The notes below the pieces were generated by a model. It saw only the letters and a list, made by a program, of their open reading frames with translations. It was not told the DNA's origin and did no database searches. Shown in pieces: positions 61,591 to 62,479 of a DNA stretch of 64,000 nucleotides. The stretch spans positions 32,001 to 96,000 of the forward strand of contig CAVQGX010000022.1 of assembly GCA_963712115.1 (NCBI GenBank), written 5' to 3'. The stretch is from an uncultured delta proteobacterium (GTDB lineage Bacteria > Desulfobacterota > Syntrophobacteria > BM002). The stretch's first letter is position 1. Each line of letters begins with the position of its first letter. The position numbers and the translations under genes were made by a program.

Positions 61591-61848
61591 TATTGTTTCC
61601 TCCGCGGTTAGCGGTGGGGATCGGGTGGCCTGGTTGTCCTTGGGCCTCTGTGAAGCGAACCCGAGGTCGTTGAAGTAACCAAATTCATGCTAATCATAAT
61701 AATTGGTTATTCTTTATGTTACCATTCTAATATGGCAAAGGCTGCGAGGATAGAGTACATTTTCATTCGCATCAAAATTTGAGTAACTCAGACACTCTAA
61801 CCTGCAAGGCTGTGTGATTAGCCCCCAGCTCGGTGAGGAGATCAAAGA

Positions 61849-62265
61849 ATGAAAAGAATTATTTCAGCGGTGTTGAAAATATCCATTGCACTAACTTTGG
61901 TTGCCGCTCTTTCCTTAAATGCAGTGGCCGGTAGCGCGCCCAGGATTACCAAAGAAGAACTCAAATCGATGCTGGGTGATGCAAAACTGGTTATTGTTGA
62001 TCTTAGAAGAAGTAAGGACTGGAACTCCAGTGAATATAAAATAAAGGGTGCTGTCCGGGCCGATCCTGATCCAAGGAAGGTTGAATCCTGGGCCAGGAGC
62101 TATGGTAAAGACAAGACCTTCGTTGTTTATTGAGCCTGACCCAACGAACACACCAGTGCCCGTGCGGTACTGAAGCTGATAGATGATGGATATCCCAAGG
62201 CCTATGCCTTAAAGGGCGGTTGGTACGAGTGGTTTCGGGCTAAATACCCAGTTGAAAAGAGGTAA
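61849..62265 (+). CDS. Exported rhodanese-like selenoprotein with a U-A-U motif (Sec95, Sec97)
   Basis: Read-through of TGA 62131-62133 and TGA 62137-62139 gives ...FVVY-U-A-U-PNEHTSARAVLKLIDDGYPKAYALKGGWYEWFRAKYPVEKR*, completing a rhodanese domain. Confidence 0.9.
62154..62172 (+). promoter_or_regulatory. Candidate bacterial SECIS element
   Basis: CAGTGCC-CGTGC-GGTACTG 7-bp stem (one G-U); loop starts 21 and 27 nt after the two UGAs. Confidence 0.7.
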
Positions 62266-62479
62266 CCGTTTCATCCAACAGAGCACCATTGGGCAACATC
62301 TCCTCAGCGGACAACCGTTTCAACTAGGCACTAAGAACTAAGCACTAGGCACCACACAGGATTATTCAGTAACGAGTAGTTGAGAAGTACTCATTTTTGG
62401 ATGCTTTTGTGTTAAATTCTGGATTATGACTCCTGGCTCCTTGCTCTATGCTCCATGCCCTATGCTTTTTCAAATGCGA

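Follow-up and report, generated by a model that had tools for sequence, protein, structure and literature searches.

Can two UGA codons that are separated by a single sense codon both be read as selenocysteine (Sec) under the direction of one RNA hairpin? This question is raised by a gene near the end of the window, by which we mean the whole stretch of 64,000 nucleotides from an uncultured delta proteobacterium that was analysed. Under translation table 11, the ORF that starts with the ATG at 61849 comprises 94 aa and has the C-terminal end FVVY. It is followed in frame by TGA-GCC-TGA, in which GCC at 62134-62136 separates both TGAs, and then by 41 in-frame sense codons between the second TGA and a TAA (62263-62265), so that the read-through product has 138 aa. 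The same arrangement had been described in an earlier reading made from the sequence alone (here called the original prediction), and our coordinates agree with its extent of 61849-62265. The gene and its surroundings contain the following features:

61835-61840, plus strand: GAGGAG, a Shine-Dalgarno-like sequence with the ATG 8 nt downstream (direct sequence inspection)
61849-62265, plus strand: whole gene of a predicted exported rhodanese-related di-selenoprotein (U95, U97), 138 codons plus TAA (Pfam, NCBIfam)
61849-61929, plus strand: predicted Sec-type signal peptide, residues 1-27, with MKR, a hydrophobic core and A-V-A before G28 (similar in relatives)
61948-62238, plus strand: rhodanese domain, residues 34-130 (Pfam PF00581, AlphaFold model, Foldseek)
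62131-62133, plus strand: UGA1, codon 95, which replaces the Cys of the NF041203 C-A-U motif (sequence, family comparison)
62137-62139, plus strand: UGA2, codon 97, the usual Sec of NF041203, at the rhodanese catalytic Cys position (sequence, alignment)
62154-62172, plus strand: SECIS-like hairpin of 7 bp with the loop CGUGC and a conserved 5-bp core, 62156-62160 with 62166-62170 (covariation, folding)
62263-62265, plus strand: TAA stop (direct sequence inspection)

The gene probably encodes a periplasmic rhodanese of the NF041203 family in which the upstream Cys has become Sec and both UGAs are read as Sec via one hairpin. The upstream Cys of C-A-U would have turned into Sec, giving Y-U-A-U, by a single TGC/TGT-to-TGA change beside an existing Sec codon, and the new codon would be decoded without a new RNA element, with SelB and Sec-tRNA(Sec) guided to both UGAs by the hairpin at 62154-62172. 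U97 would take up a sulfane sulfur (or selenium) atom and U95 would resolve it, with formation of a diselenide or, in CxU relatives, a selenenylsulfide. A periplasmic electron donor would then re-reduce the diselenide, and in many relatives this donor would be a fused octaheme cytochrome c.

The protein matches Pfam PF00581 (Rhodanese; 2e-15, 57.5 bits vs a cut-off of 22.2) as well as NCBIfam NF041203, 'rhodanese_LYCAU (seleno)protein' (172.4 bits vs a cut-off of 115, profile positions 5-126 of 126), and these two matches bear out the rhodanese identity that had been proposed. In a six-frame search of the genome with NF041203 the gene scores 158 bits. The usual motif of this family is L-Y-C-A-U, and the window protein has V-Y-U-A-U. 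An AlphaFold model of the mature domain, made with 82 aligned family sequences, has a pLDDT of 95.1, and its best PDB match in Foldseek is the single-domain rhodanese 3nhv (TM 0.82), among 153 PDB matches at E <= 0.001. In the model, a strand ends at Y94 with U95 at its end, U97 stands at the start of a six-residue active-site loop (U97-T102), and a helix runs from H101. In the PDB alignment, residue 97, the second U, is matched with the Cys of 6mxv YFYCGGGFRS, which we take to be the catalytic rhodanese Cys. The 94-aa ORF thus ends two residues before the catalytic position and not exactly at the active-site position, as had been claimed. Judged from this alignment, the catalytic position is U97, not U95, and U95 is the replaced upstream Cys of NF041203.

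Gene callers end the gene at UGA1, and the most conservative explanation would be that UGA1 is a true stop, in a pseudogene or through an assembly error, and that a 94-aa fragment or nothing useful is made. The protein collection seems to agree with this, since 61 of 104 relatives are likewise short and cover 68% of the query, as expected for an end at codon 94; the named ones among them are called 'hypothetical protein', and the three that were fetched all end in FVVY. The comparison at the DNA level points in the opposite direction. A survey of 61 related genomes at the NF041203 cut-off gave 28 matches above the cut-off, and two in-frame TGAs are present in four of these, namely in the window genome and in three other species of the same genus. 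All four copies read YUAUPNEHTS; a fifth species (G002) has YCAUPNEHTS. Furthermore, each species was represented by one genome in a scan with a DNA pattern for Y-U-A-U-P-x-E-x-T-[ST]-A, which gave 68 loci, with about one expected by chance (rough arithmetic). Every one of them is an in-frame rhodanese homologue (phmmer E <= 1.9e-9; 65 below 1e-10) and carries the hairpin. According to the record labels, the 68 loci comprise many Desulfobacterota, Nitrospirota and Chloroflexota, and also a Nitrospinaceae MAG, an Olavius-associated Delta 3 genome and one Sphingomonadaceae MAG. Since the same TGA-GCN-TGA occurs in the same frame and context in three species of the genus and in 68/68 pattern matches, the motif is, on this comparative evidence, more than chance. 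The tabulation of CxC, CxU and UxU in homologues that had been proposed as a check therefore shows UxU to recur, in three sister species and 68 species-level genomes. Because the short relatives are cut at the UGA1 position and the named ones among them are annotated as 'hypothetical protein', selenoproteome counts overlook the UxU form.

Selection on the sequence behind the motif was estimated from the five genus orthologues. The tail of 41 codons after the motif has a dN/dS of 0.12-0.31 (dS 0.30-0.73), and the 94 codons 5' of the motif have a dN/dS of 0.14-0.32. By these ratios the tail is under purifying selection, like the 5' part. A sequence behind a real stop would not be expected to stay so constrained, which argues for translation past UGA1. 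Moreover, a fragment without the active-site loop and two helices would, according to the model, be unlikely to fold. Translation through both UGAs is supported by UxU conservation, by selection on the tail and by the covarying hairpin described below.

The site is also covered by contigs from public sequencing runs: a 685-nt DNA contig spans 61700-62292, and contigs from RNA libraries span 62037-62313 and 62063-62174. Among the differences listed, none lies in either TGA, and the nearby ones are synonymous (62130 T>C, 62136 C>A). These contigs were assembled from mixed communities and have at least 85% likeness, and coverage by an RNA library is no proof of transcription. The proposed read mapping over 62131-62139 is in this way answered in part, by assembled contigs with both TGAs unaltered among the differences listed. 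In the sequencing-run search, no run exceeded 0.49 of the sampled words. Just 3' of the gene, at 62315-62355, lies a short interspersed repeat with 66 BLAST hits on many contigs of the same genome, and at this point the metagenome contigs increase in depth from tens to thousands.

A true stop would also be consistent with the lack of a selC gene in the assembly. The genome carries selA (SelA, 518 bits), selB (SelB wing domain, 75 bits) and selD (382 bits; G000:C22:26789-27709, about 5 kb before the window start). The selD gene itself has one in-frame TGA, so that it appears to be a selenoprotein gene too. The proposed check of selA, selB, selC and selD thus found three of the four, and tRNA-Sec (selC) is absent among the 43 tRNAs predicted by ARAGORN and gave no Rfam match over the cut-off in this 94.4% complete genome of 70 contigs. 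Two sister genomes with UAU have a tRNA-Sec at 75 bits, and in both of them the stretch that corresponds to the terminus of contig C31 is followed, after about 270-320 nt, by selC; the interval contains short repeats that resemble the type of repeat found at 62315-62355. Since the sister selC sits just past the end of contig C31, the missing selC is likely an assembly gap. This is not proven, as the flank of selC in G002 matches the interior of contig C45, where selC is absent. Since four species of the genus and 68 species-level genomes retain the TGA, in every case followed by an intact in-frame tail, and since this tail is as constrained as it is, we consider it highly improbable that UGA1 is a true stop.

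If UGA1 is translated, which amino acid is inserted? We sampled the phylum with 401 genomes drawn evenly, which gave 94 matches above the NF041203 cut-off, the window included. These comprise 75 CxU, 13 UxU, 3 CxC and 2 CxS proteins and one protein (L211) that has lost two residues and has a single U. Between the two U of the UxU motifs stands A, T, S or D. TGA occupies the third motif position in 89/94, and the first position is Sec in 13 and Cys in 80 of the 94. The statement that relatives usually have C-x-U or C-x-C was accordingly right as to CxU, the commonest form, and three CxC proteins do occur; it left out UxU, which accounts for 13/94. At position 95, apart from the deletion case, solely TGC/TGT or TGA codons are present (n=94). 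Homologues with non-Cys residues at the two positions had been named as counter-evidence to the original prediction: position 95 is Cys or Sec with the exception of the one deletion, and position 97 is Ser or Gln in a few relatives.

This codon pattern bears on the possibility that UGA1 is read as something other than Sec, either by a near-cognate Trp or Cys tRNA or by Cys carried on tRNA-Sec, to give W/C-A-U. The ancestral residue is Cys, hence Cys should be tolerable, and SelB delivery could suffer because the hairpin is 6 nt farther from UGA1. However, the restriction of position 95 to TGC/TGT or TGA is the pattern of a Cys/Sec exchange, the distance of 27 nt falls inside the range of 16-37 nt given in the available parts of a 2026 review (PMC13188914), and leakiness would yield little of a conserved protein. 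Non-Sec read-through of UGA1 is in our view unlikely.

In the course of these searches, two CAU genes were found with an extra in-frame TAA inside the domain (L024 in G030, and G299:C7:3729-4214); they are possibly pseudogenes or errors. In four family members (L139, L141, P0002 and P0004) the catalytic position is taken by Ser or Gln and the upstream Cys is retained (C-A-S, C-A-Q). Since these proteins do without Sec or Cys at 97, position 95 would not be merely a helper and may be harder to dispense with than position 97, and the assignment of catalytic and resolving residues may then be wrong.

We next consider the RNA element. The original prediction had postulated a single 7-bp hairpin with a G in its loop, 27 and 21 nt from the two UGAs, and this is what the sequence contains at 62154-62172. 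The stem arms CAGTGCC (62154-62160) and GGTACTG (62166-62172) enclose the loop CGTGC (62161-62165); the hairpin of 19 nt has 7 bp including one G-U pair and a folding energy of -8.6 kcal/mol, and the loop is 27 nt from UGA1 and 21 nt from UGA2. The fold of the whole region is unremarkable compared with shuffled sequences (z -0.46; 58/200 shuffles as stable), so that the suggested RNA folding supports the hairpin itself and not the region, and the case for the hairpin is comparative rather than energetic. The 5-bp core is paired in 22/22 family sequences (columns 26-30/36-40), with compensatory changes in four of the five pairs. The covariation of the 7-bp version is 0.403 vs 0.196 in shuffles, a value reached by 0/500, and when the partners were slid by 1-3 columns the pairing dropped from 84% to 25-51%. 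In the phylum sample the core is paired in 85/91 sequences, and a loop of 5 nt with G at the second position is present in 88/91.

The consensus bacterial SECIS, as quoted in the available parts of the review (PMC13188914), has a loop of 3-9 nt, a stem of 4-16 bp, a G in the first two loop positions, a UGA-to-loop distance of 16-37 nt and an MFE <= -7.5 kcal/mol. The window hairpin agrees with all of these values as quoted there, including the spacing for both UGAs. With the fdhF SECIS of E. coli and the consensus SECIS it shares a small apical loop containing G and a short helix just 3' of the UGA. The E. coli fdhF SECIS carries a bulged U, which is not evident in the window hairpin, and the window element must, unlike that of fdhF, serve two codons 6 nt apart. 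Altered SECIS-UGA spacing in E. coli fdhF lowers Sec insertion, and in view of this sensitivity a 6-nt tolerance on the part of the SelB of the window organism is an assumption. The same caution follows from the fdhF hairpin being located 11 nt from its UGA, as given in the part of PMC8659212 that was available.

Instead of sharing one SECIS, the two UGAs could have separate ones, with UGA1 served by a second structure that overlaps the first or is an alternative to it, and the fold of the single sequence does offer other pairings that involve the UGA region. Yet RNAalifold predicted one helix only on the 22 family sequences, and on 64 UAU sequences (18 nt before to 72 nt after UGA1) it returned the hairpin helix and no other. 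Moreover, the CAU orthologue of G002 shares every nucleotide with the window between the Ala codon and a point past the hairpin (alignment columns 4-43), and the hairpins of UxU and CxU genes are indistinguishable: the core is paired in 16/16 UxU vs 69/75 CxU sequences, the MFE is -9.27 vs -8.94 kcal/mol (Mann-Whitney p 0.51), and the register is alike. A separate element for UGA1 is therefore most improbable, and we infer that one hairpin serves both UGAs. Since the CAU and UAU hairpins are alike and both spacings are in range, a TGY-to-TGA change at codon 95 would be decodable without a new RNA element.

Such changes seem to have occurred repeatedly. Both the C and the U state are found in four well-supported clades of the phylum tree and in the window clade, which has 99/99 support and comprises four UAU and one CAU sequence with one change. 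This suggests at least five separate C/U switches at position 95. The whole tree, built from 110 columns and with many open forks, has 14 changes vs a shuffled-label mean of 15.2, with 38/200 shuffles as low; as this count is indistinguishable from that of shuffled labels, only a minimum is given, taken from the well-supported mixed clades. In the phylum sample (L122-L214), the second UGA is followed by C, of a Pro codon, in 16/16 UxU vs 51/75 CxU sequences. This comparison is post hoc and was made on related sequences, so that it is only a hint that the 3' context matters when two UGAs are read.

From these data we consider it rather likely that the decoding window of this SECIS is at least 6 nt wide and permits two successive SelB deliveries, that the upstream Cys has repeatedly been converted to Sec, and that the result is a periplasmic diselenide with a lower redox potential than the selenenylsulfide of C-x-U proteins. 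The Cys/Sec swaps at position 95 with an unchanged hairpin provide natural evidence on one bacterial SECIS and two codons 6 nt apart, and the reading with one SECIS is a claim about SelB geometry. If it is true, any Cys codon two residues before a Sec codon is one mutation away from a working second Sec, and the gene would be a compact natural system in which to study tolerance of SECIS spacing and SelB recycling.

The two UGAs might also act chiefly as a selenium-sensing gate, with regulation rather than chemistry as their main role: at low selenium, translation would stop at UGA1 and nothing would be exported. Each UGA competes with RF2, and two of them would make the yield depend more steeply on the supply of Sec-tRNA; the recoding efficiency of one E. 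coli SECIS in vivo is 30-40% according to the available text of PMC4513850, and the frequent C/U switching at position 95 would fit such a gate as well. A gate is, however, compatible with a chemical role, and position 95 being invariably Cys or Sec, with one exception by a two-residue deletion, speaks for chemistry at the site. As the principal role of the two codons, we regard a gate as improbable, slightly more so than non-Sec read-through.

The window gene is thus a well-supported member, with two Sec, of a known selenoprotein family, and it is not new in kind, as UxU has been in print since 2007. The novelty of the form was overrated in the original prediction. Zhang and Gladyshev (2007; PMC1976440) described, in the parts of the paper available, a rhodanese-related sulfurtransferase of Olavius algarvensis symbionts in which 'a second Sec evolved', with a UxU motif. 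Like the window protein, this is a deltaproteobacterial rhodanese selenoprotein with UxU, and the Olavius-associated Delta 3 genome of our scan (L082) carries YUAUPNEETSA in an NF041203 protein. We infer from this, within what the available text allows, that the UxU family of that paper is NF041203. The 12 of its 13 passages on SECIS, the 'second Sec' and the sulfurtransferase that were covered contain nothing on the decoding of two UGAs, the frequency of UxU or the number of origins. The available parts of the 2026 review (PMC13188914) list NF041203 as rhodanese form 3 with CxU and one Sec. The window protein corresponds to this family in length, signal peptide, Sec at the catalytic position and register of the hairpin; the Cys of C-A-U is Sec in the window protein, whereas the table of the review, as available, has one Sec. 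Our literature search found no further report of the UxU form and no experiment on the NF041203 family, and a 2022 preprint by Haft and papers on octaheme and rhodanese proteins contained nothing on this family. By our counts the UxU form is common: it is present in 68 species-level genomes from several phyla (record labels), and in the phylum sample roughly one family member in seven has it.

Two or three Sec occur in further bacterial families named in the available parts of the same review (PMC13188914), for example in TsoB with UxxxxU. TsoB (NF045694) resembles the window protein as a rhodanese-domain selenoprotein with two nearby Sec. In contrast, the window protein reaches 29 bits vs the TsoB cut-off of 805, and TsoB, as far as described in these sources, is a fusion of 572 positions with its Sec five apart. 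Three weak family matches with two TGAs (G049:C307:2589-2954, G043:C10:38663-39025 and G042:C217:10687-11052) are located inside open frames of 577-607 aa and may be TsoB-like double selenoproteins.

The protein encoded by the window gene is, judging by its N-terminus and its relatives, probably exported to the periplasm. Inspection of the sequence shows MKR, a 20-residue hydrophobic stretch and A-V-A/G, and relatives have similar leaders at their N-termini; a cleavable signal peptide, as noticed in the original prediction, is the likely reading. Three UAU orthologues (L029, L035 and L037) have leaders with a lipobox-like LAAC/VAAC, and the window protein and that of G002 have L or F in place of this Cys. 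As the lipobox Cys is present in these orthologues and not in the window protein or G002, the status as lipoprotein or soluble protein may differ between close species.

Attachment of c-type heme takes place outside the cytoplasm, and fusions of the family to a multiheme part therefore support export. Such fusions are frequent among the 68 UAU loci: 39 are of standalone size, 26 are fused N-terminally to an octaheme part, and 3 have longer tails without CxxCH motifs. The 26 fusions have about 540-560 residues (three examined in full), with a leader and eight CxxCH; three that are cut by contig ends show 6-8 motifs. Examples are L039:304-1926 (minus strand), L057:520-2127 (minus strand) and L064:1249-2895 (plus strand), with 23 more within L054-L121. 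Two fusions were scanned, one with CAU and the other with UAU; they gave matches to Pfam Multi-haem_cyto and partial ones to the hydrazine dehydrogenase family, so that the LYCAU/UAU-octaheme fusions appear to be distantly related to hydrazine dehydrogenase/HAO-type proteins. We found no name for this rhodanese-octaheme architecture. As a possible identity of the cytochrome fusions we considered MccSep, a multiheme polysulfide reductase selenoprotein (PMC13510729), and rejected it, since five hemes and another Sec motif are described for it. The presence of the octaheme fusions in many sulfur-cycle anaerobes points to an uncharacterised periplasmic selenium-dependent redox enzyme.

As to its function, we tentatively propose, at rather less than even chances, that the window protein is a periplasmic sulfane-sulfur carrier or reductase in which the atom is accepted by U97, with U95 as the resolving residue and a diselenide as the product. 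The diselenide or selenopersulfide chemistry put forward in the original prediction is likewise putative. Sud of Wolinella succinogenes is a periplasmic polysulfide-sulfur transferase, an exported single-domain rhodanese-like protein with one Cys and no Sec which feeds a respiratory reductase. Likened from descriptions, it is a carrier akin to the window protein, but free of Sec. A natural Sec pair akin to U95/U97 is found, again by description, in SelL, a eukaryotic UxxU protein whose Sec pair forms a diselenide, but SelL has a thioredoxin-like fold and a eukaryotic SECIS in the 3'-UTR. Three observations count against a role in sulfane-sulfur transfer. Relatives with C-A-S or C-A-Q exist; the active-site loop contains a Glu that is invariant in the aligned family sequences and would be odd for a rhodanese which binds anions such as thiosulfate; and the standalone genes have no conserved gene partner. 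Synteny is limited to close kin, where the neighbourhood comprises genes for an HNH protein, a membrane protein, the rhodanese, an ACT-domain protein and a cNMP-binding protein. At eight loci (L018-L021, L025, L027, L028 and L103), a gene for a membrane protein of about 420-436 aa, which is absent from the window, is located directly upstream of the rhodanese gene; this protein has no Pfam hit and a faint likeness to amino-acid permeases.
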